Source of the DNA: Rhynchopus sp. YZ270_cl-10
Taxonomy: Eukaryota
DNA: 64,000 bases
Direction of reading: 5' to 3'
NCBI GenBank assembly: GCA_964035575.1
Contig: OZ037843.1
Location: 1,612,001-1,676,000, forward strand
Part shown: positions 12,590 through 39,071 of the stretch, piece by piece
How positions within the stretch are numbered: position 1 is the stretch's first letter
Layout of the letters: each line of letters opens with the position of its first letter
Notes under the pieces: generated by a model
Databases searched by the model: none
Seen by the model: only the letters and a program-made list of their open reading frames with translations
What the model was told of the DNA's origin: nothing
Program-made: the position numbers and the translations under genes

Positions 12590-15097
12590 ATGCCGTCTCC
12601 TGTGTTCTTCGCGTACTTCCGCCGTGCGCTGCTCGCGTTCGTCTTTGTTGCGATCGGGATGGCTCTGTACCTTGGAGGTGAGACCGACGCTGCTTGTCAG
12701 ACTGTGCACCTGATGGCGATAGCGACGACTGCGTACCTGATGGGTGAGCGTGCGGCAGGGACGAGCGGCGATCACTCGTCTCTCACAGACTTCCTTGTGT
12801 GGTCCGTGTATCTGTGTGTGCTGTGCTTTGTGCTTGTCACGTCCACAGTTCTGACGGTCGACAAGCCGTACATGGGGCTGTGCTACCTGACTGGCTACGC
12901 GTGTGCAGTGTTCTACGCAGGCGGGAAGGTTGCTCTTGTGACGCTGTTGGTGGAGCGCCTCCGCATTCTGCGTGATGCCTCGCGTGACGCACCGCTCTCG
13001 AGGTGGAAGGACCGGCATTGGCTTGCTATGATGGGTTTGATGGTGCCGTATCTGGTATCGGGGTCGATACTGCTGTCGCAGGTGAATGTGTACCTGACGC
13101 CAACGCGTACGTGCTTTCTCTTGCTCTCGTTGCTGGCGACGTACCCTGTCCTGTCGTACAACACCTTCTTCACGATCATTGTGTCTGGCTGCTTCTTCTG
13201 GGAGACGTGGAAGCTGAAGAGCAAAGGCGGCTTATCAACACTGCGTGTGAGTCTGAGAGGTGTGAGTCCAACGGGTGCTGTGCTCTCGTGTCTCATCTAC
13301 CTCACGTGCAGCACGATGAACGTAGGTTCCTTTCTGTTCAACTCTAGACAGCACTACCGCACCTGTCTGACGCTGTGTGTGGTGGATTTGTGGGTGGGCA
13401 TGTTCGTGACAGACTACATGTCAGGGCTGGTGGCAGACATGGAGAAGGTGCGCACAGACGCGGAGGAGGCAATGGACGCAATCGCCGTGATGGAGCTGGA
13501 CAGACTGGAGCATCTGGAGCGTGAGCCAACGTCGCGTGTGCAGGCGTCGCTTGCGCGCATCATCGGCCTGCTGCGGGACATCAAGCAGTTCATTCCAAGC
13601 ACGTACCTTGCGTCGCTCAAGGCAGACAGCGAGGATGTGATTGAGGACGACGCCTACAACGTCACACTGACACGCACGGATGCACCTGGGGCAGTGTCTG
13701 GCCGTGCTGCCATTGTCTTCACAGACATTGTGTCGTCGACACAGCTGTGGGAGGCCTGTCCTGAGGGCATGGCGAAGGGCATGCGTCTGCACAACAAGAC
13801 CGTCCGCGACTGCATTGCTGAGATGAACGGGTACGAGGTGAAGACGATTGGGGATGCCTTCATGGTGTCCTTCGACACGTCGCACGAGGCAGTCAGCTTT
13901 GGTGTGCTTGTGCAGGAGCGGATGTACGGGCTCACGTGGCCACAGGAGTTGGTGGACTTCAGCCTTGCACCGAAAGAAGAGAAGGAGAGCAAGGTCGGCA
14001 TGCAGCTGCGCATCGGTGTGAATGCAGGCGACACGCGTGTGGAGTTCAACGGCATCACAGGACGTGCAGACTACTTCGGCCCCACGGTGAACGTTGCAGC
14101 ACGCATTGAGTCACGTTGTGTTGCTGGGTCGGTGGCAGCACCACAGGCGGTCTACGACGAGTGGAAGACGGCGTGTGGCGACAGCGGGCTCAGCGTTGCG
14201 ATGGGTGACATTGAGCTGAAGGGTGTGGGCCAGAAGGTGTCTTTGGTGTGTGTGATTCCCTCTTCGATGCCGTGGCGTGAGAAGGCTGTCAAGGCACTAC
14301 TGCGGAGACCAAGCCTTACTGGGAAACTTGATCCAAAACGTTCGATGTGTTCCACAAGGTCTTCAGCGCACACAGCTACAAGGGTGCACGAGCGCAAGCA
14401 AGACTTCGAAGGCAAACTCGCAACAGTGGCACGCATTGAGCTGCGCTTCACCGAAACCTCAGGAGACCCCATCGGGAGCTTGAACGAGAAGCTTGGGAAG
14501 GTGATCGGCTCGCTGGAACGGACAGAAGGCTCCATCACAGCCCTCTTCGGGTCGCACGTGATTGCGGGTTGGAACACATCACGTCGGAACATGAACCACG
14601 TGCAAAGCTCCTTCGTGTTCTGCCAGATGCTGCACAAGTCGACAATGTGGGCCTACTCAGACGGCCCTGTGTTTGTCGGGCTGTGCACGGGCACAGTGTA
14701 CGCAGCGACACTGGGTGCAGCAGGACAGCGCTTCATGACAAGCATTGGCGCGTGCCTGGGGATGGCAGGACACGTGCTGCACCGGAGCATCAACCACAGG
14801 GTGTTTGCGCTGTACTGCACACTTCTCGACACACCTGTGACATATTCGGCTTCGACACGTCCTGTGCTGAGGTGGGATGTGAAGCGTATTCGTGGGACAG
14901 CGACTGCTGATGTGCACGAGGTGTGCCTTGAGACCAATGACTTTGAGGAGGAGCTGGAGTGGGGCTGGACACAGGATTACTGGACTGCTTTTGCTGAGGG
15001 AAATGAGAAGGAGATTCGTGAGAAGTGCGAAAGCAACACGTGTTTGATGGACATGCTTAACACTGTGTGCGACACGTCTGTGTTCCTTTATTGCTGA
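12590..15097 (+). CDS. GPCR-like multi-TM receptor adenylate cyclase, paralog 2 (835 aa)
   Basis: Same architecture and catalytic motifs (FTDIVSST, VKTIGDAFM, DYFGPTVNVAAR) as paralog 1. Confidence 0.92.
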   Translation: MPSPVFFAYFRRALLAFVFVAIGMALYLGGETDAACQTVHLMAIATTAYLMGERAAGTSGDHSSLTDFLVWSVYLCVLCFVLVTSTVLTVDKPYMGLCYLTGYACAVFYAGGKVALVTLLVERLRILRDASRDAPLSRWKDRHWLAMMGLMVPYLVSGSILLSQVNVYLTPTRTCFLLLSLLATYPVLSYNTFFTIIVSGCFFWETWKLKSKGGLSTLRVSLRGVSPTGAVLSCLIYLTCSTMNVGSFLFNSRQHYRTCLTLCVVDLWVGMFVTDYMSGLVADMEKVRTDAEEAMDAIAVMELDRLEHLEREPTSRVQASLARIIGLLRDIKQFIPSTYLASLKADSEDVIEDDAYNVTLTRTDAPGAVSGRAAIVFTDIVSSTQLWEACPEGMAKGMRLHNKTVRDCIAEMNGYEVKTIGDAFMVSFDTSHEAVSFGVLVQERMYGLTWPQELVDFSLAPKEEKESKVGMQLRIGVNAGDTRVEFNGITGRADYFGPTVNVAARIESRCVAGSVAAPQAVYDEWKTACGDSGLSVAMGDIELKGVGQKVSLVCVIPSSMPWREKAVKALLRRPSLTGKLDPKRSMCSTRSSAHTATRVHERKQDFEGKLATVARIELRFTETSGDPIGSLNEKLGKVIGSLERTEGSITALFGSHVIAGWNTSRRNMNHVQSSFVFCQMLHKSTMWAYSDGPVFVGLCTGTVYAATLGAAGQRFMTSIGACLGMAGHVLHRSINHRVFALYCTLLDTPVTYSASTRPVLRWDVKRIRGTATADVHEVCLETNDFEEELEWGWTQDYWTAFAEGNEKEIREKCESNTCLMDMLNTVCDTSVFLYC

Positions 15098-15600
15098 AGG
15101 CTCTATTCACCGCCGTGCATTCTGTTGGCAGGCGAGAACCGAAGCGCGTCAGTGGGGTTGCCTTCAATGATGCACAGTTTCAGTGAACATTACTGATGTG
15201 TATCATCATCAGACCTTTTCGCGTTCTTGTTTCGGTGACGTATTTCTGGAGTGACATTATTGCGCATTTTTATCAAGACAAGTACTTTGTGGTGGGAAAT
15301 GATTCAAGTATTCGAGACTTGTTGTTTATTCCTTTCCCCCTTTATTGTGCACTTACCTCATTTCTGTACTTCAGTCAACGGGATTTTTTCCCCTTTTGAC
15401 ATCCATTTCTGGACGTTGTGGGGGTAGAAGAAGAAATGTTTGTTGAAATTTTCTGGCTTTTTCTGAACTTTTCCCAGCTACTTTTCTGGTCGAGTAGCTA
15501 TTTTCACTTTTCTGGTGTATGAGTAGGTTTTCTGGGTGGGAGACTGGATTCTGGGTACAGTGGTGTGTCTGGGCACCCAGGCACCCAGGTGCCCAGACCC

Positions 15601-16000
15601 AGGTACCCAGGTACACGGTACACTGGTGTACAAGGAAAAAAGTCGTGAAAGAGCAACCACAGCTCCACATGACAAACACAAAAGTGTCCAGTCACGTGGG
15701 TCATTCATGCACTGAGGAGATAATGATCCAACAATTTACAAGAAAGATTACTTAACCTACTGCTGGAAGTTGCCAGGTCGTAGTAACACACAAAGTGTGC
15801 CTCCGTTCGGGAATACCGGATATTCTAGAGACCAAAAAGGCCTCTTCCGCTAGTCAAGGTAGAACCGAATGAACGGCCCAAGACCCCCCCGTGGAGAAGT
15901 TAAATGTTGTAATGCTATCAAGTAAACTGCGACCACTGTCTTACCCTCCTCAATGCATGGTGGAAGATGTCTTTGACAACAAATATCCTGTACCCAGGTA
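15601..16000. repeat. ~400-bp segment also found inside the Mutator-like element at 50721-51120
   Basis: Near-identical run aggtacccaggtacacggtacactggtg...aaatatcctgtacccaggta at both loci, in the same orientation. Confidence 0.9.
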
Positions 16001-16933
16001 CACAGGTACACAGATAAAACCCGTTAAAATTGTGTGTAAAAGTTCCTCAAAGCCAGAAATTTTCAACAAAGCCCTGTTTTCACCTCCCAAAAAGTCGTTT
16101 TCTCTTGATTCGTGATTTCTGAGTGTGCACTCAGAAAACACTCATCAAGAAAACGACTTTTCTGGTCGGTAAAAAATAGCTATTGTTACATTTTCCCAGC
16201 GTTTTCTTCACAGTAAAATCCTTCTTTTCGTTATGTGTAGACTGTTTTCTGTTACGTGTAGAATTTGGTGCCTGGTGCCCAGAATACTTGGGTACCAAAA
16301 AGTGATATGATAAGTACTACACTGTGTACAGTGTACAGTGTACAGTCTATAAAACTATATAACAGTGTATTTCTGTGATTCAAACACTGGAGAAAAATGT
16401 GACAAAGCACTGTTTTCCCCTCGAGAACAGCCGTTTTCCTTCACTCGTGTTTCCTTTGCGTGCAGAGAAAACACTCGTGAAGGAAAACGAATTTTCTCTC
16501 GAGAAATAATAGCTATTCTCAAGATGTCTAAAAGAAACAAAAAAACGAAGCTTAACCCATAAAAAACGTGCGTATTCCGTGGGTAGCGTACCAAGAAAGC
16601 AAGATGAAAGGGGTTTAAATTGTTGGACAGCACAACCAAATTTTGTGGGGAAAATAGAACCCCTCCAATAGCAATTGTCTGCCATTATCTTAATAGTCCA
16701 AGGTTCCACTACGACATGCGAGCTGAAGGGTCATGTTTAAAGCCTTTCTTCGATCTGCCTTTGTGTCAACTAGGACATTCGAGCATTCTTTCCAGAACGC
16801 TCTTTTTGCACACAACTCAACAAAGAACGCAATGATATTATTGATAGCCACAAAAGAAACAACAAATTTGTCAAAATAATGATAAAAGGAATAACGATAC
16901 CGTAATCGTAAGAATTCTGGGACGTAAAAATGT

Positions 16934-17033
16934 CATACATTGAAATCCCGGGGAGTCACGGGGAGTTTGGCAAAAAATCAAAAAAAACGAACTCCCCGTG
17001 AGTGTTTTTTTGGTTTCGAGAGTTTTCGAGAGT

Positions 17034-17070
<37 letters not shown>

Positions 17071-18148
17071 GGTTTTCTTCCTTGCTTTCGTATTTTTTGT
17101 TTTCTGTATCTATGTGGATCCCCCCCAGTGAACCGTTTGGGACCCCGCTCTGCCGTGGCAGTCGTTTTTTTTTTTTTTTTACGGAGAGTTTTCGCGATTA
17201 ATCGCGACAAAATTCGCGATTAATCCCCGGGAGTAAAATCGCGATTTTTTGTAGCATTTTACCCCAAACACAACCGTGCACACCTGGTGCTATCCGCATC
17301 TGACCTGCGCCTACCTGGGCACACGTTCAGTCTACGTACTCACATTACACCTACCGATTGATTCGCAAAATGCACCCACCACGACAGAGGGGTGATAAGC
17401 CTCGCGGCTTTAGGCGGCACAGTGGTGGCGGACATGAGCAAACGAGCCCACAGGTCGATCACAAATGCGACGGGTTAATTCCGCGCTTGGAAATTATCCA
17501 CACCTGTTTAAGATATAATTACGCTTAAATTACTCTGGGCGAAAAATGGTACACCATACCAGCACTGAAGCATACCACCACATGTAAGCAGGGCTATTTT
17601 AAATATGGGGATAAGGAACAAGAAAAGGGTGAAAACGGGTCGAGGCTTCCCGCCGCAGGCGGAAATTTTTAGATGCCGTGCACTTTTCCAGGTGGTTTGA
17701 AGAGTGATCTGACCATATTGTCCCAGTATAGCAGTACACCCAATAAATCCATTGGAGAAGGAACATTGCACTTTTGACCACCACAGAATACATGTTGCCA
17801 GCCACACCACTAAAGTACAAAAACCCCCTCGGAACGTAGTGAGAGCTTGTGAAAAAATCTCTCCCCGTTCATAGATGGCCCAGTTTTCGAGATTTTTTCA
17901 TAAATTCGCGATTAATCGCAAATTTTTATTTTATAAATTGGAGAGTTTTCGAGAGTATTTTTTTTAAATCGGGGAGTATTGGAGAGTTTTGGAGAGTTTT
18001 GGAGAGTTTTTTTTTAAATTGGAGAGTTTTCGAGAGTTTTTCACAAATTCGCGATTAATCGCGAATTTTTTTTCTTTTTTTTTAATCGCTAAAACTCTCG
18101 AAAACACCAGTGGAGAGTCTCCGCGACTCCCGGGGATTTCAATGTATG
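16934..18148. mobile_element. Nested non-autonomous TIR element with CAT..ATG termini and a 6-bp TSD
   Basis: catacattgaaatcccggggagtc / gactcccggggatttcaatgtatg, flanked by AAATGT on both sides. Removing it restores the host MITE motif aaaaatgtcccaag. Confidence 0.8.
17037..17165 (-). mobile_element. Very short 5'-truncated copy of the non-LTR retroposon 3' end with poly(A)
   Basis: A poly(T) run followed by ~97 bp identical to the segment starting at ~36075. Confidence 0.8.
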
Positions 18149-20090: not shown

Positions 20091-22598
20091 ATGCCGTCTC
20101 CTGTGTTCTTCGCGTACTTCCGCCGTGCGCTGCTGACGTCCGTCTTTGTTGCGATCGGGATGGCTCTGTACCTTGGAGGTGAGACTGACACTGCTGTGCA
20201 GACTGTGCACCTGATGGCGATAGCGACGACTGCGTACCTTATGGGTGAGCGTGCGGCAGGGACGAGCGGCGATCACTCCTCGTATATGGGGATGTTGGTG
20301 TGGGTGGTGTACCTGTGTGTGTTTCTCTTCGTCTGCATCTCCTCGACTGTGCTGACGATAGACAAGCCGTACATGGGGATCTGCAGTCTAGTCATCAACG
20401 CGTGTGCAGTGTTCTACGTAGGAGGGAAGTTTGCTTTTGTGATGCTGTTGGCGGAGCGCCTCCGCATTCTGCGTGATGCCTCGCGTGACGCACCACTCTC
20501 GAGGTGGAAGGACCGGCATTGGAAGATGATGATGGGCTTCATGGTGCCGTACCTCGCAGTGGGTCTCATCCTCATCACGCATGCGGGTGCCCGCATCAGC
20601 CCGACGTACACGTGCTTTCTTCAGATCAAGCCCCTCGCGAGCATCTCGGTGGTCTCGTACAATGCCTCCTTCTCGTTCGTCATAGCAGGCTGCTTCTTCT
20701 GGGAGACAGTGAAGCTGCAGAAGCTGCAGCACAAGTCGTTGCGTGTGAGTCTGAGAGGTGTGAGTCCAGCTGGTGCCGTCATCACATGTCTTCTCTTCGC
20801 ACTGTTCAGCACAATGAGCATAGGTTCCTTCGCATTCCAGGAGCACCAGCACTACCGCACCTGTATGACATTCTGTGTGCTGGACAAGTGGTTCGGCATG
20901 TTCGTGACAGACTACATGTCAGGGCTGGTGGCAGACATGGAGAAGGTGCGCACAGACGCGGAGGAGGCAATGGACGCAATCGCCGTGATGGAGCTGGACA
21001 GACTGGAGCATCTGGAGCGTGAGCCAACGTCGCGTGTGCAGGCGTCGCTTGCGCGCATCATCGGCCTGCTGCGGGACATTAAGCAGTTCATCCCAAGCAC
21101 GTACCTTGCGTCGCTCAAGGCTGACAGTGAGGATGTGATTGAGGACGACGCCTACAACGTCACACTGACACGCACAGATGCACCTGGGACAGTGTCTGGC
21201 CGTGCTGCCATTGTCTTCACAGACATTGTGTCGTCGACACAGCTGTGGGAGGCCTGTCCTGAGGGCATGGCGAAGGGCATGCGTCTGCACAACAAGACCG
21301 TCCGCGACTGCATTGCTGAGATGAACGGGTACGAGGTGAAGACGATTGGGGATGCCTTCATGGTGTCCTTCGACACGTCGCACGAGGCAGTCAGCTTTGG
21401 TGTGCTTGTGCAGGAGCGGATGTACGGGCTCACGTGGCCGCAGGAGTTGGTGGACTTCAGCCTTGCACCGAAAGAAGAGAAGGAGAGCAAGGTCGGCATG
21501 CAGCTGCGCATCGGTGTGAATGCAGGCGACACGCGTGTGGAGTTCAACGGCATCACAGGACGTGCAGACTACTTCGGCCCCACGGTGAACGTTGCAGCAC
21601 GCATTGAGTCACGTTGTGTTGCTGGGTCGGTGGCAGCACCACAGGCGGTCTACGACGAGTGGAAGACGGCGTGTGGCGACAGCGGGCTCAGCGTTGCGAT
21701 GGGTGACATTGAGCTGAAGGGTGTGGGCCAGAAGGTGTCTTTGGTGTGTGTGATTCCCTCTTCGATGCCGTGGCGTGAGAAGGCTGTCAAGGCACTACTG
21801 CGGAGACCAAGTCTTACTGGGAAACTTGATCCAAAACGTTCGATGTGTTCCACAACGAAGTCCTCAGCGCACACACCGACAAGGGTGCACGACCGCACGC
21901 AAGACTTCGAAGGCAAACTCGCAACAGTGGCACGCATTGAGCTGCGCTTCACCGAAACCTCAGGAGACCCCATCGGGAGCTTGAACGAGAAGCTTGGGAA
22001 GGTGATCGGCTCGCTGGAACGGACAGAAGGCTCCGTCACAGCCCTCTTCGGGTCGCACGTGATTGCGGGTTGGAACACATCACGTCGGAACATGAACCAC
22101 GTGCAAAGCTCCTTCGTGTTCTGCCAGATGCTGCACAAGTCGACAATGTGGGCCTACTCAGACGGTCCTGTGTTTGTCGGGCTGTGCACGGGCACAGTGT
22201 ACGCAGCGACACTGGGTGCAGCAGGACAGCGCTTCATGACAAGCATTGGCGCGTGCCTGGGGATGGCAGGACACGTGCTGCACCGGAGCATCAACCACAG
22301 GGTGTTTGCGCTGTACTGCACACTTCTCGACACACCTGTGACATATTCGACTTCGACACGTCCTGTGCTGAGGTGGGATGTGAAGCGTCTTCGTGGGACA
22401 GCGACTGTTGATGTGCACGAGGTGTGCCTTGAGACCAATGACTTTGAGGATGAGCTGGAGTGGGGCTGGACACAGGATTACTGGACTGCTTTTGCTGAGG
22501 GGAATGAGAAGGAGATTCGTGAGAAGTGCGAATGCAACACGTGTTTGATGGACATGCTTAACACTGTGTGCGACACGTCTGTGTTCCTTTATTGCTGA
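20091..22598 (+). CDS. GPCR-like multi-TM receptor adenylate cyclase, paralog 3 (835 aa)
   Basis: Same architecture and catalytic motifs. A ttcccctAG acceptor-like site lies just upstream of the ATG. Confidence 0.92.
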   Translation: MPSPVFFAYFRRALLTSVFVAIGMALYLGGETDTAVQTVHLMAIATTAYLMGERAAGTSGDHSSYMGMLVWVVYLCVFLFVCISSTVLTIDKPYMGICSLVINACAVFYVGGKFAFVMLLAERLRILRDASRDAPLSRWKDRHWKMMMGFMVPYLAVGLILITHAGARISPTYTCFLQIKPLASISVVSYNASFSFVIAGCFFWETVKLQKLQHKSLRVSLRGVSPAGAVITCLLFALFSTMSIGSFAFQEHQHYRTCMTFCVLDKWFGMFVTDYMSGLVADMEKVRTDAEEAMDAIAVMELDRLEHLEREPTSRVQASLARIIGLLRDIKQFIPSTYLASLKADSEDVIEDDAYNVTLTRTDAPGTVSGRAAIVFTDIVSSTQLWEACPEGMAKGMRLHNKTVRDCIAEMNGYEVKTIGDAFMVSFDTSHEAVSFGVLVQERMYGLTWPQELVDFSLAPKEEKESKVGMQLRIGVNAGDTRVEFNGITGRADYFGPTVNVAARIESRCVAGSVAAPQAVYDEWKTACGDSGLSVAMGDIELKGVGQKVSLVCVIPSSMPWREKAVKALLRRPSLTGKLDPKRSMCSTTKSSAHTPTRVHDRTQDFEGKLATVARIELRFTETSGDPIGSLNEKLGKVIGSLERTEGSVTALFGSHVIAGWNTSRRNMNHVQSSFVFCQMLHKSTMWAYSDGPVFVGLCTGTVYAATLGAAGQRFMTSIGACLGMAGHVLHRSINHRVFALYCTLLDTPVTYSTSTRPVLRWDVKRLRGTATVDVHEVCLETNDFEDELEWGWTQDYWTAFAEGNEKEIREKCECNTCLMDMLNTVCDTSVFLYC

Positions 22599-24257: not shown

Positions 24258-26893
24258 CAGTGTTCCTAACCCTAGTTTTAAACGAAACGTTTTAAACGTT
24301 TTAAACTCTAAACGTTTTAAACTGTTTTAAACGTTTTAAACTCGAATAAAAAACGGTGGTGAATTTTGGCTTTTCAGGCAAAAAAAAAAATTTTTTTTTT
24401 TTTTTTTCAGGCAAAAAAAAAATGTCTTTGCGAAAAAAATGTGGTATTTTCCTCTTTGCTGAACTTTTCAGTGGCAGCAGGCACGGTGTAATTAGGTGTA
24501 GTAGGTGTAAATTATGCGCATGCATGTTAATGCTGCGGTGTAGCCAACCCCCCACCCCCCTTAGTCAGACACATCTTCTATCTTCAGGCAAGAGTGCACT
24601 GCTGACAGCATCTGGAGCTTCTCTGCTGACAGACGGCACCTTCTGCCCCCCGAGAGCCAGCCCATCGAGCTGAACGTACGCTCCACCTCCGCCGTCGAGG
24701 GCCGGATCGCCACGATGGGGATGGCGATGCGCGCCAGCGTACACCCCTTCTTCGCAAGCACAGTCCACCACTCCTCCGGCGTCACCTTCCCCGCAATCTT
24801 CCAGAAGCTCTCCTTCGAGAAGAACTCCAGCTTGTTGGAGAGGAGGAGGAGGTCGGAGCTTTCCCCGCCGCACGCCTTCACGTACCGTTCGGCGGCTTCC
24901 TCAACTTCCGCAGGGGGGGAGTAGCCCTCGAAGAAGGCCTTCGCATCGCCAGCACCCTCCCGGGAATACTCCACGGGGGTCATCACGGTGGCGGCACACA
25001 GCCAGTCCTGTGACTCGTACTTCTCCCTCCGCCCAGCCGCCTTCTGCGCCCAGTCTCGCATCTTCTTCCGGTCTCCTGCAGGCACCGTTCCCTTCGCAGC
25101 GCAGGCAATGATCTTCTTCTCAACGGCAGAAAAGATAGGGATGATCATGCCTGCCCTGCCCTTGTTCCCCTGCAGGAGGTTTATCGCCACAGAGACGAAG
25201 GCCATAGCCTCGAGTACGACCGCGAAGGTGTCCCACTTATCCAGCAGCTCCTTGAGGGAGGGGCACTGCGCCGCAATTGTGTTGTCGTCATTCATGAGGA
25301 TGAGCGACGTCTTGGCTTCACACATCACTTTCCAGCACTCATGCGAGCTGGTCCAGCGGGTGAGGGTGGGGCGTGGGGGCTTCTTTGCCTGAGGGCGGCC
25401 ATTCTGGACCTGGAGCTCAGCAAACTTCTTCCCGAGAGCCTCGACATTGCGAATGGAGGAGGTGGTGGTGCTCAACAGATCTACCAGCCAAGCGAAGGCG
25501 TTCTTCACTTCCTTCCCCGCGCTCTTCCTCACCCCGAAGGCATCATTCAGGACACGGTTCAGGGTGTGAGTAGAACAAATGAGAAGCACGCACTTATGCT
25601 CGTTCTCCCCCCTGGCTTCATTGATTTCGGTAGCAAAAACCTTGCACCCTGCAGCTGTAGTGGTGTCCCCATCACACACTAGCCCACTCAACTTATCTTT
25701 TTCTGGCATCTCATGCAGGTGCGTACGGATCTCCTCCGCATTGTGCGAGTCCTCCTCCAAAACTTTTGTGCTTACAGGGCGGGCATCCGCACCATCTCCG
25801 GAGGCGACAAGGGTGAACACCTTCTCGTCGTTGTGCGCCTTCCAGCCATCAACGTATACCGAGATGTGCAGGCTCTGTGCTAGGGCTGCTCTCACAGGAA
25901 CCATGACCCTGTCATACTCAGCCTTAAGTACCCTGTTGCCCATCTGGTACCCGCTGGGAATTTTTGCCACATCAAATGCTGGCACCAAGCGCTTGATCAG
26001 CCTCTGCAGGTATATTGACTCTGCAGTGCTGAACGAGAGGCCGTGCGCAAAAAAGAGGCGACCAAGGTCAGCTTCGATGTTTGCGTAGTCCTCGTCAGTC
26101 AGAGCTGACGGATCACCCCGCTTGCGCTTCGCGCGTCGCGCCTGAGTTTGGGGAGTCTGCTCCGAAGATTGTGACGATGCCACTGGGGGAGACTGTGTCT
26201 GGGACACGGGTGGCTGTGAGGATGGCAACACCTCAGGGGATTCCGCCTGACCTGGGGGGGGAAGAAGCACCGGGGGAGCCTGGTCCGGGGGAGTCTCCTG
26301 CGAAGATGCTTGCGGCGCCCCATCATCCTCATCATCCTCCACGCCCTTGGCCTTCCGCACGATCGCTGCAGGGGCGTCGCTGCACTGGCTCAGGTGTTTG
26401 CGCATACGTGTTCCTGTTGCGCTCAGCACACACTCGCCGCAGTGGTTGCACTTAGCATCCTTTTCGGAGCTGAAGTGTGCACGCGACCAGCATGGCGGGC
26501 GACCCATAATTGTCTTGTGTATGTCTGTTCGTGTTGGGTGAACATACTGTACAAAAAAATGCAGTCCTGGGAAAATTTAAGACGGGGGTCTATCGGAAGG
26601 TTTTCGCGCATTCATTAGGGTACCGTACAGGAAACAAGTTGCCATAGCAGGAGAAACGAAGAAAAACCAGGCTAAATTGACCATAGATACACCAAAACTA
26701 TGATTTTTGATACAGAAAAAAAAAAATTCGAAAAATCCCCCCACTTTTTTTACGTTTTTTTGTGCAGAACTGCCACCCGTTTTTTATTCGAGTTTAAAAC
26801 GTTTAAAACGTTTAAAACGTTTAAAACGCGTTTTAAATAATTTAAAACGTTTAAAACGTTTTAAACGTTTTAAACGCAAAATTAGGAACACTG
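24258..26893 (-). mobile_element. Intact autonomous hAT DNA transposon
   Basis: Perfect 12-bp TIRs CAGTGTTCCTAA/TTAGGAACACTG, a perfect 8-bp TSD GGTGGGGG (24250-24257, 26894-26901), subterminal AAACGTTT arrays at both ends and an uninterrupted transposase ORF. Confidence 0.95.
24561..26507 (-). CDS. hAT-family transposase (648 aa)
   Basis: BED-type zinc finger (W..AHF..CNHC..HLSQC), catalytic D (VYVDGW), D (VCDGD), CxxH (CSTH), an RW motif (TRWTS) and the hAT dimerisation region with E (WW...PSTAEVERTFS). Confidence 0.93.
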   Translation of the reverse strand: MGRPPCWSRAHFSSEKDAKCNHCGECVLSATGTRMRKHLSQCSDAPAAIVRKAKGVEDDEDDGAPQASSQETPPDQAPPVLLPPPGQAESPEVLPSSQPPVSQTQSPPVASSQSSEQTPQTQARRAKRKRGDPSALTDEDYANIEADLGRLFFAHGLSFSTAESIYLQRLIKRLVPAFDVAKIPSGYQMGNRVLKAEYDRVMVPVRAALAQSLHISVYVDGWKAHNDEKVFTLVASGDGADARPVSTKVLEEDSHNAEEIRTHLHEMPEKDKLSGLVCDGDTTTAAGCKVFATEINEARGENEHKCVLLICSTHTLNRVLNDAFGVRKSAGKEVKNAFAWLVDLLSTTTSSIRNVEALGKKFAELQVQNGRPQAKKPPRPTLTRWTSSHECWKVMCEAKTSLILMNDDNTIAAQCPSLKELLDKWDTFAVVLEAMAFVSVAINLLQGNKGRAGMIIPIFSAVEKKIIACAAKGTVPAGDRKKMRDWAQKAAGRREKYESQDWLCAATVMTPVEYSREGAGDAKAFFEGYSPPAEVEEAAERYVKACGGESSDLLLLSNKLEFFSKESFWKIAGKVTPEEWWTVLAKKGCTLARIAIPIVAIRPSTAEVERTFSSMGWLSGGRRCRLSAEKLQMLSAVHSCLKIEDVSD

Positions 26894-27170
26894 GGTGGGG
26901 GATAAAACAATTATCCCCCGTTTTTTCTCCCCCATTTTATTTTATTTTATCACCCACTACAGTTATCCCCCATTTCCCACACCGCGTTTTTGGTGTGGAT
27001 TTTCCTTGGGGATGGGGATATTCAGGTGGGAAAAAAGAGAGATGTTTTTTTTTATCCCCCACTACAACTATCCCCCATTTTTTGAGAAGAAAAAACTGGC
27101 GATATTTTTTATTTTATCCGCCATTCTACAGTTATCCCCCACTACAATTATCCCTCCCCCCCCTTTAAAG

Positions 27171-27739: not shown

Positions 27740-28132
27740 ATTTGCCAAGATTTCCATGTTGTGAATGTCACTTGTTTTGCAGACAACAACGCAGTGTAAC
27801 GCAGCGTAACGCAGTGTAACGGAGTGGTTGTTAGGAAATAATACAAACTGTAAGGATCGGACCTTTTTGGAATCGAAGGATGAAATTTGTGTGTATAATT
27901 CGATAGTCTTGTATGTGTTTCCTCTCTCTCTTTTCTCCCCAACCTCTGCTCCCCGACTCCAATTCAACCAACACTCGAGCACGGTTTGCAGCGCTTAAGA
28001 CTAACAGGTGCAGTCTGATAAACGAAAAGGTTACGAGTTGAGTTTAGTGCCATACGTCGCCCCGCAGCTTTGTCTTACTGTCATGACCATGCCTATTAAA
28101 ATCCTCCAAGGCAGACACAAGAGTAACGACAA

Positions 28133-28645
28133 AAGGTGCTTACCTCCGGTGTAAATACATCCTCTCAAATTTTTTCTGTCGACACGCCAGTGGAATTAGC
28201 TGGGTGGCCATTCAGGAATGAGAAGTAGTATCCACCGTTTAAAGTGCGATCGAAATAATTTATTGTTACACTGGGCTTGATTTTTGATTACACATCAACG
28301 CTCAGTGTTACCAGTGCAGGTCACTGTTGTACACTACATTACACCCTTAGGCCTTTTCTTTACTGGCAATAAGATAACCGCAGCTTTACAGCGCAATTTT
28401 ATATTTTTTCGACGCACTTTAAGACTTTAATAACATATGAGGTGGCCTTTCCTCCGTCGACACCCACGCTGCACACGATGGCTGGGTGGCCATTCGGGGA
28501 CGTGAGCCACTGTGCGGTCGGATGGCGTACTGATGTTGCTTTAAATTTATTGTAGTGCTCAGTGCGACCGAGTGGTGCACATTGGCAACATATATTACAC
28601 CGTTATGCCTATTCTTTTCTGGCAACTTAATACAGCTTACAGCAC
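28133..28645. repeat. Degenerate tandem duplication (two units of ~200-260 bp)
   Basis: Blocks gtcgacac, gctgggtggccattc, aatttattgt, gctcagtg, attacacc, ctggcaa and cagctt(t)acagc occur twice in the same order. Confidence 0.6.
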
Positions 28646-29762
28646 ACAGTAACAGCTAAATGACGCACACCATCCTGTAGTTAAAAGCTTTCCTTACTCT
28701 ATGTCCTTCGGCCTTTGTGCTCTTGATAGTACGAGGTTAAGTACGGGATCGAGAGGGAATAAGCTACAGTTGTGTTGAATTGAATTGGAGTAGGGGATGC
28801 GTTCAATGAAATCATTTGTGTAGAAAAGTTTCGAGGATGTAGGTTTTATTATTTTTATCTTTATCAAAAAGTTTGACGTGCTGGGTCGCGTTCTATTGAC
28901 GACTCTCCTCAAAAAAAAGATTTTTGCGGGCCACCCAACCGTCAAAAACAAACAAATACATCATGACCTTTCAAGACCAACCAACTACCTTTCAATAGAA
29001 AATAAAATCCTTTTGTTTGCTTGCGACACTATTCACTTTTTTCTCTTTGGTGCTAGGATCACCCTCCCCAGGGCCCCTATCACGTACCTTTCGATCCACC
29101 GTGCTCCGGTATGCACGTCAGAAGGCGTTTTTTGAGGGTGGTTTTCACGCTCTGTCTGACCCGGAGGCATCTCCGCAGAGAAACCCCCAGCAACCCCCCA
29201 GCCAGAGGGGACATTTGGATCCAAACCCCTCACTGAGGAATAATTCACGGCCACAATCGGTTTTTTCCCTTATGGAACCACCCATGGTTCTGACACCGTA
29301 ATTCACATACCTTTCACGAGTTCGCGTTTCCCACCCCACAGTATAACCAAAAATACCAATTTTTGGTTGGTACCGCCACCAAAAAGAGGGGAAAACCCCA
29401 GGTTTCTGGTGAAAAAACGCCTGATAGTGTAGCTGTAAAACACCGAACAGAGGGTTTAAAAGTGTAAACTTCACGACACAAAACTTCTTCAGAAGTACGA
29501 AGTATGGAAACGTCTGATTTTGAAGTCAATGAAAACTCCACCAACAGTAGTTTATGACCCTGCCATTTTTTCGGATCGCTCGCGAAACTTCATATTACGA
29601 TGTTTTGAGCAAATATAATCACACCAACCGATCCATGCCCCAAAATCAAAAATCCAGTGCGGCGGGTTTTTATGGGTTTTTTTGTTACCTACATCTGCAT
29701 GGGTTATCTTCATCACTGCCCCCCCGCCCTAGGCACACAGCAGTTGGCCCTTTCATACAAAA

Positions 29763-32267
29763 ATGCCGTCTCCTGTGTTCTTCGCGTACTTCCGCCGTGC
29801 GCTGCTTACGTCCGTCTTTGTTGCGATCGGGATGGCTCTGTACCTTGGAGGTGAGACTGACGCTGCTTGTCAGACTGTGCACCTGATGGCGATAGCGACG
29901 ACTGCGTACCTGATGGGTGAGCGTGCGGCAGGGACGAGCGGCGATCACTCGTCTCTCACAGACTTCCTTGTGTGGTCCGTGTATCTGTGTGTGCTAGGAT
30001 TTGTGCTTGTCACGTCCACAGTTCTGACGGTGGACAAGCCGTACATGGGGCTATGCTACCTCTCTGTCTACTCGTGTGGGGTTTTCTACGGGGGTGGGAA
30101 GGTTGCTCTTGTGATGCTGTTGGTGGAGCGCCTCCGCATTCTGCGTGATGCCTCGCGTGACCAAGCGCTCTCGAGGTGGAAGGACCGGCATTGGATGGTG
30201 ATGATGGGCTTCATGCTTCCTTACCTCGCGTCAGCGGCAATACTGATGGCTAACATCGATGCGGTACTGAGCCCAACGCGTACGTGCTTTATTTTGATCT
30301 CGTTGCTGGCGACGTACCCTGTCCTGTCGTACAACACCTTCTTCACGATCATTGTGTCTGGCTGCTTCTTCTGGGAGACGTGGAAGCTGAAGCGCAAAGG
30401 CGGCTTATCAACACTGCGTGTGAGTCTGAGAGGTGTGAGTCCGACGGGTGCTCTGCTCTCGTGTCTCATCTACCTCACGTGCAGCACGATGAACGTAGGT
30501 TCCTTTCTGTTCAACTCTAGACAGCACTACCGCACCTGTCTGACGCTGTGTGTGATGGATTTGTGGGTGGGCATGTTCGTGACAGACTACATGTCAGGGC
30601 TGGTGGCAGACATGGAGAAGGTGCGCACAGACGCGGAGGAGGCAATGGACGCAATCGCCGTGATGGAGCTGGACAGACTGGAGCATCTGGAGCGTGAGCC
30701 AACGTCGCGTGTGCAGGCGTCGCTTGCGCGCATCATCGGCCTGCTGCGGGACATTAAGCAGTTCATCCCAAGCACGTACCTTGCGTCGCTCAAGGCTGAC
30801 AGTGAGGATGTGATTGAGGACGACGCCTACAACGTCACACTGACACGCACAGATGCACCTGGGACAGTGTCTGGCCGTGCTGCCATTGTCTTCACAGACA
30901 TTGTGTCGTCGACACAGCTGTGGGAGGCCTGTCCTGAGGGCATGGCGAAGGGCATGCGTCTGCACAACAAGACCGTCCGCGACTGCATTGCTGAGATGAA
31001 CGGGTACGAGGTGAAGACGATTGGGGATGCCTTCATGGTGTCCTTCGACACGTCGCACGAGGCAGTCAGCTTTGGTGTGCTTGTGCAGGAGCGGATGTAC
31101 GGGCTCACGTGGCCGCAGGAGTTGGTGGACTTCAGCCTTGCACCGAAAGAAGAGAAGGAGAGCAAGGTCGGCATGCAGCTGCGCATCGGTGTGAATGCAG
31201 GCGACACGCGTGTGGAGTTCAACGGCATCACAGGACGTGCAGACTACTTCGGCCCCACGGTGAACGTTGCAGCACGCATTGAGTCACGTTGTGTTGCTGG
31301 GTCGGTGGCAGCACCACAGGCGGTCTACGACGAGTGGAAGACGGCGTGTGGCGACAGCGGGCTCAGCGTTGCGATGGGTGACATTGAGCTGAAGGGTGTG
31401 GGCCAGAAGGTGTCTTTGGTGTGTGTGATTCCCTCTTCGATGCCGTGGCGTGAGAAGGCTGTCAAGGCACTACTGCGGAGACCAAGCCTTATTGAGCCGA
31501 AGCGTGTGTCCAAGTGTTCTACAACGAAGTCTTCAGTGCAGACAGCCACAAGGGTGCACGAGCGCAAGCAAGACTTCGAAGGCAAACTCGCAACAGTGGC
31601 ACGCATTGAGCTGCGCTTCACCGAAACCTCAGGAGACCCCATCGGGAGCTTGAACGAGAAGCTTGGGAAGGTGATCGGCTCGCTGGAACGGACAGAAGGC
31701 TCCGTCACAGCCCTCTTCGGGTCGCACGTGATTGCGGGTTGGAACACATCACGTCGGAACATGAACCACGTGCAAAGCTCCTTCGTGTTCTGCCAGATGC
31801 TGCACAAGTCGACAATGTGGGCCTACTCAGACGGCCCTGTGTTTGTCGGGCTGTGCACGGGCACAGTGTACGCAGCGACACTGGGTGCAGCAGGACAGCG
31901 CTTCATGACAAGCATTGGCGCGTGCCTGGGGATGGCAGGACACGTGCTGCACCGGAGCATCAACCACAGGGTGTTTGCGCTGTACTGCACATTGCTCGAC
32001 ACACCTGTGACATATTCGGCTTCGACACGTCCTGTGCTGAGGTGGGATGTGAAGCGTCTTCGTGGGACAGCGACTGTTGATGTGCACGAGGTGTGCCTTG
32101 AGACCAATGACTTTGAGGATGAGCTGGAGTGGGGCTGGACACAGGATTACTGGACTGCTTTTGCTGAGGGGAATGAGAAGCAGATCAGGGACAAAGGCCT
32201 CAATGACGCAACACTGATGAAGATAGTGAACACTGTGTGCGACACGTCTGTGTTCCTTTATTGCTGA
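29763..32267 (+). CDS. GPCR-like multi-TM receptor adenylate cyclase, paralog 4 (834 aa)
   Basis: Same architecture and catalytic motifs. Confidence 0.92.
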   Translation: MPSPVFFAYFRRALLTSVFVAIGMALYLGGETDAACQTVHLMAIATTAYLMGERAAGTSGDHSSLTDFLVWSVYLCVLGFVLVTSTVLTVDKPYMGLCYLSVYSCGVFYGGGKVALVMLLVERLRILRDASRDQALSRWKDRHWMVMMGFMLPYLASAAILMANIDAVLSPTRTCFILISLLATYPVLSYNTFFTIIVSGCFFWETWKLKRKGGLSTLRVSLRGVSPTGALLSCLIYLTCSTMNVGSFLFNSRQHYRTCLTLCVMDLWVGMFVTDYMSGLVADMEKVRTDAEEAMDAIAVMELDRLEHLEREPTSRVQASLARIIGLLRDIKQFIPSTYLASLKADSEDVIEDDAYNVTLTRTDAPGTVSGRAAIVFTDIVSSTQLWEACPEGMAKGMRLHNKTVRDCIAEMNGYEVKTIGDAFMVSFDTSHEAVSFGVLVQERMYGLTWPQELVDFSLAPKEEKESKVGMQLRIGVNAGDTRVEFNGITGRADYFGPTVNVAARIESRCVAGSVAAPQAVYDEWKTACGDSGLSVAMGDIELKGVGQKVSLVCVIPSSMPWREKAVKALLRRPSLIEPKRVSKCSTTKSSVQTATRVHERKQDFEGKLATVARIELRFTETSGDPIGSLNEKLGKVIGSLERTEGSVTALFGSHVIAGWNTSRRNMNHVQSSFVFCQMLHKSTMWAYSDGPVFVGLCTGTVYAATLGAAGQRFMTSIGACLGMAGHVLHRSINHRVFALYCTLLDTPVTYSASTRPVLRWDVKRLRGTATVDVHEVCLETNDFEDELEWGWTQDYWTAFAEGNEKQIRDKGLNDATLMKIVNTVCDTSVFLYC

Positions 32268-33476
32268 AGGCTCTATTCACCGCCGTGCACTCTGTTGGCA
32301 GGCGAGAACCGAATCTCCACCTCAGGGTAAAGGTGCTGGGAATCCTACCCTGGGTGAAGGCAGGCACACTACATGTGTGTAGGGACCTCCTGGATACCCT
32401 AGCCAGTGAAGCCATGAGACCCCCCTAGGAAACTGGGATATTGGAAGAGACCTCGCTGGTAGCCGGGAACCCTCCCTGGGCTAGTGCAATAATGTAACTT
32501 CAATCTTAAGTCCACAGCTCGCGAGCTGATGGTTCATCTTTAAAGACTTTCTTGGCTTTGCCTTTGTGTCAACTAGGACATTGTAGCATTCTTTCCAGAA
32601 CGCTCTTTTTACACACAACTCAATGATATTATGATAGCCCCAAAAGAAACAACAAATTTTTCAAATGTTTTATTTTGAATTGATTCGCGCGTTCGAAAAA
32701 CGAAAACGCCTGCATACAACCGTAATTTCTGTTAACTGCCATGGGGGTGGCACGACCCACCTCTCGCCGCGTCTTTTTAGTCAAAACCCCGTGTGATTGT
32801 TTTATACTTTTCCCCTTTTAATTTGTTTTTCGTTGTGTCGTATATATTACAAAAACCCGGTGTGCGGTGGCAGACAGTGGAAGGTTCTGATCATAAAGCC
32901 CCTTTTTTCCGCACGTTAAGGAAAGGCAGCTTCCTCTTTGCCAACTCCATTTTCTTGGACCTGTTCCAGGACCGTGCATGCTCCGTTCTCTAAAAGGAAT
33001 GGTAAAACCGTTTTCAAACAAAAAAACAGCTCTCTGCAGCTCTCTGTGCAGTGAAGAGTTCCTACTTCACTCATGTTGCATTAGAAGGTACGAAGGCTTC
33101 CTGCTCGCACAGCCCTTTACAGGGTGACGTTTGCAGTCTGAAGTCAGCCTCTCATGTGAAGATCTATGCAGACACTTAACGAAGAAAAAGAAAATAATAA
33201 AACCTACATTCTTGAACTCTTCTACACGACGTGATTTTCATTGGACGCATCCCTTCTCCAATTCAATTCAACAAAACTGTGGCTTACTCCCTCAAAATTC
33301 GTGAAACTTCGCAGGAAAAAACTCTTTTTTTGTTCGCGAGTTTGTTTTGCATCTTCCGCAGTTTACAAACTTTTTTTTTTGCCCGGTATGGGAGCGTATT
33401 GCAGTAAATAAAATGTCAACACAGAATTTACACACTTTACGCACAAAACAAAGTCGTCTTTTTCTTTTTGTCAACA

Positions 33477-35987
33477 ATGCCGTCTCCTGTGTTCTTCGCG
33501 TACTTCCGCCGTGCGCTGCTCGCGTTCGTCTTTGTTGCGATCGGGATGGCTCTGTACCTTGGAGGTGAGACCCATGCAGCCACGATGACCGTGCATCTGC
33601 TCGTCCTTTCGACGACAACGTACCTGATGGGTGAGCGTGCGGCGGGGACGAGCGGCGACCACTCCTCGTATATGGGGATGTTGGTGTGGGTGGTGTACCT
33701 GTGTGTGCTGTGCTTTGTGCTGGTCACGTCCATGATGCTCTCAGTGGACAAGCCGTACCTGGGGCTGTGCTACCTCTCTGTGTACACGTGCTCCACTGCC
33801 TACGCAGGCGGGAAGGTTGCTCTTGTGACGCTGTTGGTGGAGCGCCTCCGCATTCTGCGTGATGCCTCGCGTGACGCACCGCTCTCGAGGTGGAAGGACC
33901 GGCATTGGCTTGCCATGATGGGTTTGATGGTGCCGTACCTCGGGTGCGGATCGATACTGCTCGCGAACATACACGCCAACATCAGTAAGACGAATACGTG
34001 CTTCCTGAACATACAGCAAATATCCACTATTTCGATGCTTTCGTGGAACACTTTTGCGTCGCTCGTCATCGGCTTCTCCTTCGTCTGGGAGACTGTGAAG
34101 CTGCAGAGGTTCAGAGATGGGTCCAAATCCTTGCGTGTGAGTCTGAGAGGTGTGCATCCAGCTGGTGCCGTCGTCGCCTGCCTGATTTACATCACCTTCT
34201 CCTGCGCCAACATCATCTCCCTCATCTACAACGAGCATCAGCACTACCGCACCTGTCTGACGCTGTGTGTTTGTGATAAGTGGTTCGGCATGTTCGTGAC
34301 AGACTACATGTCAGGGCTGGTGGCAGACATGGAGAAGGTGCGCACAGACGCGGAGGAGGCAATGGACGCAATCGCCGTGATGGAGCTGGACAGACTGGAG
34401 CATCTGGAGCGTGAGCCAACGTCGCGTGTGCAGGCGTCGCTTGCGCGCATCATCGGCCTGCTGCGGGACATTAAGCAGTTCATCCCAAGCACGTACCTTG
34501 CGTCGCTCAAGGCTGACAGTGAGGATGTGATTGAGGACGACGCCTACAACGTCACACTGACACGCACAGATGCACCTGGGACAGTGTCTGGCCGTGCTGC
34601 CATTGTCTTCACAGACATTGTGTCGTCGACACAGCTGTGGGAGGCCTGTCCTGAGGGCATGGCGAAGGGCATGCGTCTGCACAACAAGACCGTCCGCGAC
34701 TGCATTGCTGAGATGAACGGGTACGAGGTGAAGACGATTGGGGATGCCTTCATGGTGTCCTTCGACACGTCGCACGAGGCAGTCAGCTTTGGTGTGCTTG
34801 TGCAGGAGCGGATGTACGGGCTCACGTGGCCGCAGGAGTTGGTGGACTTCAGCCTTGCACCGAAAGAAGAGAAGGAGAGCAAGGTCGGCATGCAGCTGCG
34901 CATCGGTGTGAATGCAGGCGACACGCGTGTGGAGTTCAACGGCATCACAGGACGTGCAGACTACTTCGGCCCCACGGTGAACGTTGCAGCACGCATTGAG
35001 TCACGTTGTGTTGCTGGGTCGGTGGCAGCACCACAGGCGGTCTACGACGAGTGGAAGACGGCGTGTGGCGACAGCGGGCTCAGCGTTGCGATGGGTGACA
35101 TTGAGCTGAAGGGTGTGGGCCAGAAGGTGTCTTTGGTGTGTGTGATTCCCTCTTCGATGCCGTGGCGTGAGAAGGCTGTCAAGGCACTACTGCGGAGACC
35201 AAGCCTTACTGGGAAACTTGATCCAAAACGTTCGATGTGTTCCACAAGGTCTTCAGCGCACACAGCTACAAGGGTGCACGAGCGCAAGCAAGACTTCGAA
35301 GGCAAACTCGCAACAGTGGCACGCATTGAGCTGCGCTTCACCGAAACCTCAGGAGACCCCATCGGGAGCTTGAACGAGAAGCTTGGGAAGGTGATCGGCT
35401 CGCTGGAACGGACAGAAGGCTCCATCACAGCCCTCTTCGGGTCGCACGTGATTGCGGGTTGGAACACATCACGTCGGAACATGAACCACGTGCAAAGCTC
35501 CTTCGTGTTCTGCCAGATGCTGCACAAGTCGACAATGTGGGCCTACTCAGACGGCCCTGTGTTTGTCGGGCTGTGCACGGGCACAGTGTACGCAGCGACA
35601 CTGGGTGCAGCAGGACAGCGCTTCATGACAAGCATTGGCGCGTGCCTGGGGATGGCAGGACACGTGCTGCACCGGAGCATCAACCACAGGGTGTTTGCGC
35701 TGTACTGCACACTTCTCGACACACCTGTGACATATTCGGCTTCGACACGTCCTGTGCTGAGGTGGGATGTGAAGCGTATTCGTGGGACAGCGACTGCTGA
35801 TGTGCACGAGGTGTGCCTTGAGACCAATGACTTTGAGGAGGAGCTGGAGTGGGGCTGGACACAGGATTACTGGACTGCTTTTGCTGAGGGGAATGAGAAG
35901 CAGATTCGTGAGAAGTGCGAAAGCAACACGTGTTTGATGGACATGCTTAACACTGTGTGTGACACGTCTGTGTTCCTTTATTGCTGA
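33477..35987 (+). CDS. GPCR-like multi-TM receptor adenylate cyclase, paralog 5 (836 aa)
   Basis: Same architecture and catalytic motifs. The C-terminal half is almost identical to paralog 2. Confidence 0.92.
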   Translation: MPSPVFFAYFRRALLAFVFVAIGMALYLGGETHAATMTVHLLVLSTTTYLMGERAAGTSGDHSSYMGMLVWVVYLCVLCFVLVTSMMLSVDKPYLGLCYLSVYTCSTAYAGGKVALVTLLVERLRILRDASRDAPLSRWKDRHWLAMMGLMVPYLGCGSILLANIHANISKTNTCFLNIQQISTISMLSWNTFASLVIGFSFVWETVKLQRFRDGSKSLRVSLRGVHPAGAVVACLIYITFSCANIISLIYNEHQHYRTCLTLCVCDKWFGMFVTDYMSGLVADMEKVRTDAEEAMDAIAVMELDRLEHLEREPTSRVQASLARIIGLLRDIKQFIPSTYLASLKADSEDVIEDDAYNVTLTRTDAPGTVSGRAAIVFTDIVSSTQLWEACPEGMAKGMRLHNKTVRDCIAEMNGYEVKTIGDAFMVSFDTSHEAVSFGVLVQERMYGLTWPQELVDFSLAPKEEKESKVGMQLRIGVNAGDTRVEFNGITGRADYFGPTVNVAARIESRCVAGSVAAPQAVYDEWKTACGDSGLSVAMGDIELKGVGQKVSLVCVIPSSMPWREKAVKALLRRPSLTGKLDPKRSMCSTRSSAHTATRVHERKQDFEGKLATVARIELRFTETSGDPIGSLNEKLGKVIGSLERTEGSITALFGSHVIAGWNTSRRNMNHVQSSFVFCQMLHKSTMWAYSDGPVFVGLCTGTVYAATLGAAGQRFMTSIGACLGMAGHVLHRSINHRVFALYCTLLDTPVTYSASTRPVLRWDVKRIRGTATADVHEVCLETNDFEEELEWGWTQDYWTAFAEGNEKQIREKCESNTCLMDMLNTVCDTSVFLYC

Positions 35988-36062
35988 AGGTGCTATTTTC
36001 CTTCCTACCCCCACAAGAGGGCATGTGACACCGCAAAAATGCGGTTTTTTGAGGTTCTTTTT

Positions 36063-38999: not shown

Positions 39000-39071
39000 T
39001 TTTTCTTTTCTTCTTTCCCTCCCCACCCTTCTTCCAGTCTCTCTCTCCCTCCCTCCCTCTTCCCCTCCCAG
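39000..39071 (+). promoter_or_regulatory. Polypyrimidine tract + AG acceptor (putative trans-splice site) directly abutting the ATG
   Basis: ~70 nt of almost pure C/T ending cccctcccAG|ATG. Confidence 0.6.

Follow-up and report, generated by a model that had tools for sequence, protein, structure and literature searches.

The window analyzed here is a 64,000-nucleotide stretch of DNA from Rhynchopus sp. YZ270_cl-10 (assembly GCA_964035575.1, contig OZ037843.1, positions 1,612,001 to 1,676,000 of the forward strand). It carries an array of five paralogous open reading frames (ORFs), each predicted to join a seven-transmembrane (7TM) sensor to an adenylyl cyclase (AC), and our subject is the patchwork of shared and private sequence among these genes. 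All five lie on the plus strand of the 64-kb window and are intact, about 835 amino acids (aa) in length and devoid of introns and internal stops. In window order we call them copies 1 to 5: c1 (2628-5135, 835 aa), c2 (12590-15097, 835 aa), c3 (20091-22598, 835 aa), c4 (29763-32267, 834 aa) and c5 (33477-35987, 836 aa). An initial annotation gave the array the range 12590..34300, which leaves c1 outside and stops short of the end of c5. Reading from the N-terminus, c1 comprises an extra transmembrane helix (TM0), the 7TM domain, a linker, an adenylyl cyclase domain and a degenerate cyclase domain. c2 is a mosaic of c5-like and c4-like tracts; c4 is its sibling in the sensor, but differs in the outer part of the third transmembrane helix (TM3) and from TM4 to extracellular loop 2 (ECL2). 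Both c3 and c5 carry a Lys in TM7.

The catalytic part is a class III adenylyl cyclase domain (13703..14239 in c2, + strand) that matches PF00211 in all five copies. For the cytoplasmic part as a whole the closest solved structure is GRESAG4 of T. brucei (E 6e-21). Residues D379, D422, K418, D494, N501 and R505 align with GRESAG4 and are unchanged in 5 of 5 copies; we take them to be, in terms of role, two metal-binding Asp, the adenine-specifying Lys and Asp, and the transition-state Asn and Arg. With these residues in place, the first cyclase domain is likely to be active and to make cyclic AMP (cAMP). It is followed by a second, degenerate cyclase-like domain (14387..14899, +), in which inspection shows neither the metal-binding Asp residues nor the Asn/Arg pair. 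Positions 527-708 of the family profile give an E of 4e-8 against soluble AC10 and of 2e-6 against photoactivated cyclases; the in-register hhalign match of the second domain is weak (E 0.035, probability 1.5%). Between sensor and cyclase lies a helical linker (13424..13609, +), in which each stretch of 25 codons between 276 and 325 has just 0-1 differences. The near-identity that the initial annotation ascribed to a HAMP linker is borne out. The likeness to HAMP is apparent by eye only: the linker has no Pfam match to HAMP at E <= 10, nor is HAMP one of the 25 families listed, out of 30, for 63 members of the family.

The sensor domain was modeled with AlphaFold2 from 105 sequences (predicted local distance difference test score, pLDDT, 90.7; predicted TM-score, pTM, 0.87). 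A model of the full-length protein reached pLDDT 40 and could not be used; the structural prediction covers the membrane domain. The model shows an extra N-terminal helix, seven more helices, a beta-hairpin in ECL2 and no ectodomain. TM0 (12602..12673, +; c2 residues 5-28) is not part of the stretch that aligns with 7TM structures and may be a signal anchor or a signal peptide. The remainder is predicted to form a 7TM domain with the fold of G-protein-coupled receptors (GPCRs; 12683..13423, +; c2 residues 32-278), and includes the ECL2 hairpin, the cysteines C98 and C175, and the pair E122-R123.

A fold search with Foldseek listed 45 rows, every one of them a GPCR (TM-score 0.39-0.54); nine matches have E <= 0.001. 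When aligned with VIA-align, microbial rhodopsins, Ste2, class A receptors and TMEM87 all score alike (Z 15-17); rhodopsins reach Z 16.9 with a root-mean-square deviation (rmsd) of 3.5 over 215 aligned residues, and Ste2 reaches Z 16.3 with an rmsd of 5.1 over 237. The fold comparison therefore cannot tell a GPCR apart from a microbial rhodopsin or TMEM87, which weighs against the GPCR assignment: with all these folds scoring alike, descent from GPCRs is unproven by fold alone. In the family alignment C98 is invariant, C175 in ECL2 is nearly so, and E122-R123 is present; across the 105 aligned sequences C98, C105, K113 and E122 are all invariant. We take E122-R123 to stand in class A register, as a (D/E)RY-like motif 24 residues past the TM3 cysteine. 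Two class A features are present, the TM3-ECL2 cysteine pair (its disulfide being predicted only) and the (D/E)RY-like motif, and the register of C98, C175 and E122-R123 leads us to favor a GPCR-like reading. The CWxP and NPxxY motifs are absent from all copies. The alternative of a rhodopsin was rejected on the position of the lysine: in every copy the residue four past D266 is Gly, c3 and c5 have their Lys directly after the Asp, and none of the five has the Asp-x-x-x-Lys retinal motif of TM7. Position 267 (c2 numbering), which adjoins the near-invariant Asp266, is Lys in c3, c5 and two further paralogs (P0005 and P0006), and Val or Ile in 91 of 98 members of the wider family.

The 7TM domain has no Pfam match, and no 7tm family appears at E <= 10. 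A profile search recovered 497 proteins at E <= 0.001; homologs that were checked are mainly stand-alone fungal hypothetical proteins, together with cyclase fusions from Flectonema and ENA contigs. In the ESM Atlas all leads score below 0.9 (eukaryotic clusters 0.87-0.89, DUF7703 0.84, TOM1 0.79). Diplonema papillatum and Flectonema neradi supply the named relatives among the database matches, and the euglenid Entosiphon sulcatum a weaker one, which makes a diplonemid origin of the DNA likely. The C-terminal part of the Entosiphon 7TM protein (P0126) resembles a degenerate cyclase but has no match in Pfam. Among the database matches P0005, which lies on another contig of 1.02 Mb, and P0006 are further close paralogs; three others (P0121, P0122 and P0269), whose source contigs share one length of 178,867 bases, likely form a second 7TM-cyclase gene cluster, and P0123 is a stand-alone 7TM relative that stops just past TM7.

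Alignment of the five genes recovers every block of residues that the initial annotation had listed as shared in conflicting patterns: LLAFV (copies 2 and 5) versus LLTSV (3 and 4), HLLVLSTT (1 and 5) versus HLMAIATT (2, 3 and 4), SSLTDF (2 and 4) versus SSYMGM (3 and 5), WLAMMGLMVPYL (2 and 5) versus WMVMMGFMLPY (1 and 4), and DKWFG (3 and 5). At the nucleotide level the blocks belong to tracts of identity, all on the plus strand. c2 equals c4 over 137 nucleotides (nt) from TM1 to inner TM2 (12686..12822 / 29859-29995; codons 33-78), and c5 over 114 nt covering inner TM3, intracellular loop 2 (ICL2) and inner TM4 (12913..13026 / 33800-33913; codons 108-146). From TM5 to TM7 c2 is again nearly identical to c4 (13125..13381 / 30298-30554), with 6 nt differences over codons 173-265 as compared to 76-106 in the other nine pairs. 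The C-terminal half is shared by c2 and c5, with 3 differences in 1182 columns (19-58 in the other five pairs among c2-c5) and an uninterrupted tract of 1058 nt (13943..15000 / 34833-35890; codons 453-815). Shorter tracts join c3 to c5 in inner TM2 (48 nt, 20274..20321 / 33660-33707; codons 62-77), where another copy differs at 22 sites, and c1 to c4 from ICL2 to inner TM4 (52 nt, 3031..3082 / 30166-30217; codons 135-152), the latter not significant on its own in simulation. In addition, c2 equals c5 over codons 1-32 (96 nt), and c2, c3 and c4 are identical over codons 37-50. The tracts are limited to coding sequence.

If the copies had simply diverged after duplication, then a single tree should account for all segments. 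It does not. Applied to 131 informative 7TM sites, a test of the pairwise homoplasy index (PHI) type returned p = 5e-5. Thinning to a single site in each codon left p = 3e-4 in each of five draws, third positions alone gave p = 7e-4, and all four of the four-copy subsets tried were also significant. Simulation on a single tree with regional rates matched the observed value in 0 of 500 replicates. In the same simulations the identity runs of pairs 2-3, 2-4, 2-5 and 3-5 exceeded all 500 replicates and that of pair 3-4 was reached once; runs in the four pairs involving c1 and in pair 4-5 were unexceptional. Approximately unbiased (AU) tests accepted disjoint sets of trees for codons 1-32, 33-61 and 173-272; these are illustrative and not a formal test, because the segments were picked post hoc. 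Some results weigh against this interpretation. Tests restricted to silent sites were not significant, with p = 0.31 from 17 sites of the 7TM region and p = 0.06 from 24 sites across the gene, and a silent-site run test of the 7TM region was significant in 0 of 10 pairs.

Synonymous divergence (dS) differs greatly between the two halves of the protein. Among c2-c5 it is 0.015-0.058 over codons 273-846, and 0.46-0.62 in the 7TM region in five of six pairs. Within the sensor, none of the ten pairs has more than one synonymous difference in ICL2 (codons 113-144), which lies between zones where dS is about 0.4 to more than 1. c1 is near-identical to the others in two blocks (codons 273-450, dS 0.04-0.05; codons 651-775, dS 0.02-0.04), which are separated by an old block (codons 451-650, dS 0.77-0.86, nonsynonymous divergence, dN, 0.40); its cytoplasmic codons 453-646 and 776-846 are mostly unconverted. 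GC content at third codon positions gives no clear separation of converted from unconverted blocks. The 1.2-kb flanks of the genes share only short or repeat-derived matches (46 nt past the stops of c2 and c4, and a 302-nt match between c3 and c5 in a region that is high-copy by reads), and because the flanks share so little, recent duplication of whole units fails to explain the identical cores. We regard gene conversion among the five genes as well supported: identity tracts, unlike flanks and incompatible segment trees are together what concerted evolution by non-allelic gene conversion would be expected to leave. The segmental conversion and homogenization of the output domain proposed in the initial annotation are upheld. 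Its nearly invariant chassis survives in part, that is, for ICL2, the linker and the c2-c5 core, but not for c1, where dS is about 0.8 in codons 451-650, nor for ICL3, where 16 of 26 positions vary. The protein of P0005 is almost identical to c2-c5 at alignment columns 481-570, where c1 diverges; this likeness hints at exchange between loci.

Patterns of this kind could also be manufactured by an assembler, had it collapsed or polished the cores to one consensus and attached sensors to the wrong cores. To evaluate this, contigs from four of the eight listed sequencing runs (X1-X4, drawn from two studies, one of which is possibly the source of the assembly) were mapped to 29700-36020, so that evidence on c1, c2 and c3 comes from contigs cross-mapping onto the c4/c5 region. 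All four runs yielded a contig resembling c5 as far as codon 154 and c4 from codon 171 onward, a junction that fits c2 only. In the 54 nt before the junction it has 1 difference from c2 (7-9 from c1, c3 and c4), and in the 80 nt after it 3 differences (28-40 from c1, c3 and c5). A junction of c3 is present in an X3 contig, the 30 intervening letters being exact, and c5 is matched exactly over codons 62-118 (33660-33829, X4) and codons 136-263 (33884-34265, X2 and X4). At codons 78-111 (29996-30095), X1-X3 carry c2 at 15 of 15 listed variants and X4 carries the letters of c4. The cores are not fully identical. In X2 and X4 the core contigs are roughly 4-5 times as deep as single-copy ones, a weak indication because depth does not equal copy number, and a noisier one in X1 and X3. 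Since contigs of two studies carry the junctions of c2, c3 and c5, an assembly chimera is disfavored; at the local scale the mosaics are genuine. None of the contigs spans a whole copy, so long-range phase, such as that of the c2 sensor with its c5-like C-terminal half, lies beyond their reach. This limit and the possible overlap between one study and the source of the assembly speak for an artefact, which we nevertheless consider a very improbable explanation.

Five of 34 checked coding variants in the reads fit none of the five copies, and these unmatched variants (34317 and 34343-34344 in X1-X3; 34623 and 34645 in X4) point to a sixth paralog or an allele. Contigs of copy-2 type (29943-30125, and the joint 33937/30273) are about twice as deep as single-copy contigs in X1 and X3 and about equally deep in X2 and X4, possibly through copy-number variation between samples, for which depth is a poor measure.

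In the contrast between sensor and output domain the initial annotation saw an adaptive shuffling of ligand-pocket segments, from which a combinatorial repertoire of receptors would arise. Variation is indeed concentrated in the outer half of the helices (56 of 82 helix positions variable, compared with 31 of 78 in the inner half; p = 4e-4). c2 and c4 have TM1-2 and TM5-7 in common but are separated by 10 nt in outer TM3 and by 23 nt in TM4-ECL2; they look like a half-pocket swap, the sole such pair. Read variants outside all five copies imply further donors or alleles. Much of the evidence points the other way. Outer TM3 (10-23 nt differences) and outer TM4-ECL2 (20-29 nt) differ in 10 of 10 pairs, which means that these segments are private to each copy and not shared in combinations; the shared tracts fall mostly in TM0, TM1, inner TM2 and ICL2, mostly on the inner side of the membrane. 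Using a helical-wheel proxy (conservation moment, 99 other family members), which may misplace variable pocket residues, variable sites make up 38 of 60 lipid-facing positions and 26 of 63 bundle-facing positions (p = 0.019); for the outer half only, the counts are 24 of 30 and 17 of 33 (p = 0.033). Sites that likely face inward and nonetheless vary are 101, 102, 157, 183, 184, 187, 244 and 267, and ECL2 is variable too. By this proxy, targeting of the ligand pocket finds no support, and a lean toward lipid is among the outcomes that the initial annotation had itself named as telling against its reading. Site tests for positive selection showed zero gain for M2a over M1a and for M8 over M8a, and p = 0.27 for M8 over M7, although with codons 153-270 of four copies their power is low. 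With dS of about 0.5, omega of 0.21-0.30 and null site tests, the sensors are old and under purifying selection, and hypervariability finds no support; the unconverted cytoplasmic blocks of c1 have diverged as much. Nor does the window resemble programmed diversification of the VSG or pilin type, for a self-comparison of the window contains no partial copies and all five genes are full ORFs; beyond the five copies, the database matches hold just two close paralogs. For these reasons we consider adaptive shuffling of pocket segments decidedly doubtful.

A second possibility is that the sensors have escaped conversion neutrally. If conversion requires local identity, then lipid-facing helices and loops may have drifted past the threshold, with near-equivalent copies retained for dosage. 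This would account for the null site tests and the lean toward lipid-facing sites, and for a codon-model omega in the sensor (7TM 0.30; TM4-7 0.21) equal to or below that of the unconverted cytoplasmic blocks of c1 (0.34 and 0.32). Those blocks bear directly on the matter: they too escape conversion, in a manner that tracks low conservation in the family (rho -0.59), and this fits a neutral homology barrier. Against it, poorly conserved windows of c2-c5 are homogenized in the cytoplasmic part (mean third-position difference 0.05, 16 windows) and not in the 7TM part (0.35, 9 windows; p = 2e-4), albeit the windows are non-independent and the conservation scales come from two different reference alignments, which tempers the comparison. 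Conversions have, moreover, crossed divergent sensor blocks (the 48 nt of c3/c5, TM5-7 of c2/c4) without reaching all copies. Family-conserved positions have changed, namely N244S in c3 and K at 267 in c3 and c5. Two Flectonema transcript isoforms, possibly merged in assembly, are split alike, differing in the 7TM region and identical from about alignment column 400. We consider neutral escape unlikely, though likelier than pocket shuffling.

The window contrast in c2-c5, the crossing of sensor blocks without a sweep and the Flectonema split lead us to favor selection over neutral escape. Also in its favor, 15 of the 19 positions of ECL2 vary, as do 4 of 6 TM3 positions that we take, by class A numbering, to face the pocket. 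On balance it is probable, with ample room for doubt, that the output half is kept uniform by repeated conversion and that selection acts against the overwriting of old, different sensors; each sensor probably detects something different. A ligand binding the 7TM bundle would move TM7 and the linker that continues it, and so switch the cyclase without a G protein. Because the second domain lacks catalytic residues, two first cyclase domains would have to pair for the enzyme to work, the second acting as a regulatory pseudo-domain, and the identical output halves would permit working heterodimers between copies. Selection would remove conversions that replace an entire sensor, and short or neutral ones would survive, producing the patchwork. 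The mosaics would then be a by-product, occasionally yielding a new sensor combination (c2 versus c4), with no dedicated diversification system.

A predicted N-terminal GPCR-fold 7TM domain with a class III cyclase on the same chain is the architecture of the GPCR-AC "GPCR-bigrams" described in oomycetes, for which bypass of the G protein has been proposed (PMC5784254, PMC6033456). PMC5784254 states that no GPCR-AC homologs were found beyond oomycetes. The proteins described here differ in their euglenozoan-type cyclase, extra N-terminal helix and degenerate second cyclase domain. A scan of 69 of the 150 7TM matches listed, made without direct comparison to oomycete sequences, showed no cyclase fusion from outside Euglenozoa and no oomycete GPCR-AC, and on this basis the fusion is likely independent of that in oomycetes. 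Homologs of the 7TM domain (profile E to 1e-22) belong to a Pfam-less family in fungi and protists, with hypothetical proteins from Podila, Dichotomocladium, Umbelopsis, Phycomyces and Marasmius, among others, that are mostly stand-alone and lack a catalytic domain. Rhodopsin-guanylyl cyclases, which have a TM0 architecture, are similar in their eight-helix membrane part, helical linker and class III cyclase; unlike them, the proteins of this array have the TM3-ECL2 cysteine pair and adenine-type specificity residues, and no TM7 retinal motif.

Trypanosomatid receptor-type ACs, by contrast, have a single transmembrane helix and a large extracellular domain, as compared to the eight helices and no ectodomain of our model; in the catalytic domain, the GRESAG4/ESAG4 cyclases of T. 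brucei offer the closest solved structure. Tandem arrays in T. brucei, including the cyclase array Tb62, show partial gene conversion and chimaeric copies, and in Tb62 several breakpoints differ in lying at start or stop codons or in untranslated regions, according to the part of PMC1855330 available. In the accessible text of PMC7719234, on trypanosomatid receptor cyclases, neither "diplonem" nor "GPCR" occurs and ligands are called unidentified; the main text of PMC6366073 describes Euglena cyclase expansions with BLUF, HAMP and Cache domains, and does not contain "GPCR". We found no report of a euglenozoan GPCR-cyclase fusion in the portions of the open-access literature available, subscription papers and supplements aside, and supplements may list some. 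Divergence peaks under gene conversion, where paralogs are homogenized save where function differs, are established for red/green opsins and also reported for protocadherin clusters (Teshima and Innan 2008 and Noonan 2004, as cited in the available part of PMC3924837). The contrast between c2-c5 windows matches the pattern described there, with the difference that a five-way array is involved and a whole output domain is homogenized. The process is thus a known one, concerted evolution with the sensor as an island of divergence and occasional swaps of segments. What looks new is a GPCR-fold cyclase fusion in Euglenozoa, which would extend the GPCR-AC bigram, in modified form, to another lineage.

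The rest of the window holds a variety of other features. A comparison with Rfam gave 0 matches. Between c3 and c4, on the minus strand (24561-26507), is a 648-aa ORF with a hAT transposase dimerization domain (E 3e-5). Downstream on the plus strand are a large ORF (38967-44006), without Pfam match, that combines a long stalk of Pro/Thr/Ala repeats with a hydrophobic C-terminal part of several helices; an amino acid transporter (47565-49217; PF01490, E 2e-61); and an ORF of about 1570 aa (57469-62340) with a hydrophobic C-terminal region and no Pfam match. Nested direct and inverted repeats at 50315-51871 and 55696-57508, which include a 206-nt inverted pair of 98.5% identity (50326-50531 / 51653-51858), suggest a transposon with terminal inverted repeats.

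A more far-reaching scenario can be sketched, one we think improbable: an independent diplonemid GPCR-cyclase system free of G proteins, in which half-pocket swaps (TM3/TM4/ECL2 versus TM5-7) would generate new specificities, the identical linker and cyclase would be kept by selection for two-signal heterodimers, and the TM7 Lys of c3 and c5 would mark a second chemical class of sensor. The array also bears on environmental sensing in Euglenozoa. Four sensors on a nearly identical output domain form a natural controlled series, within which c2 and c4 are a natural half-pocket swap. A GPCR-fold sensor and cyclase in one protein would permit a single-protein cAMP assay, and such a readout could yield ligands for a Pfam-less 7TM family that is widespread in fungi.

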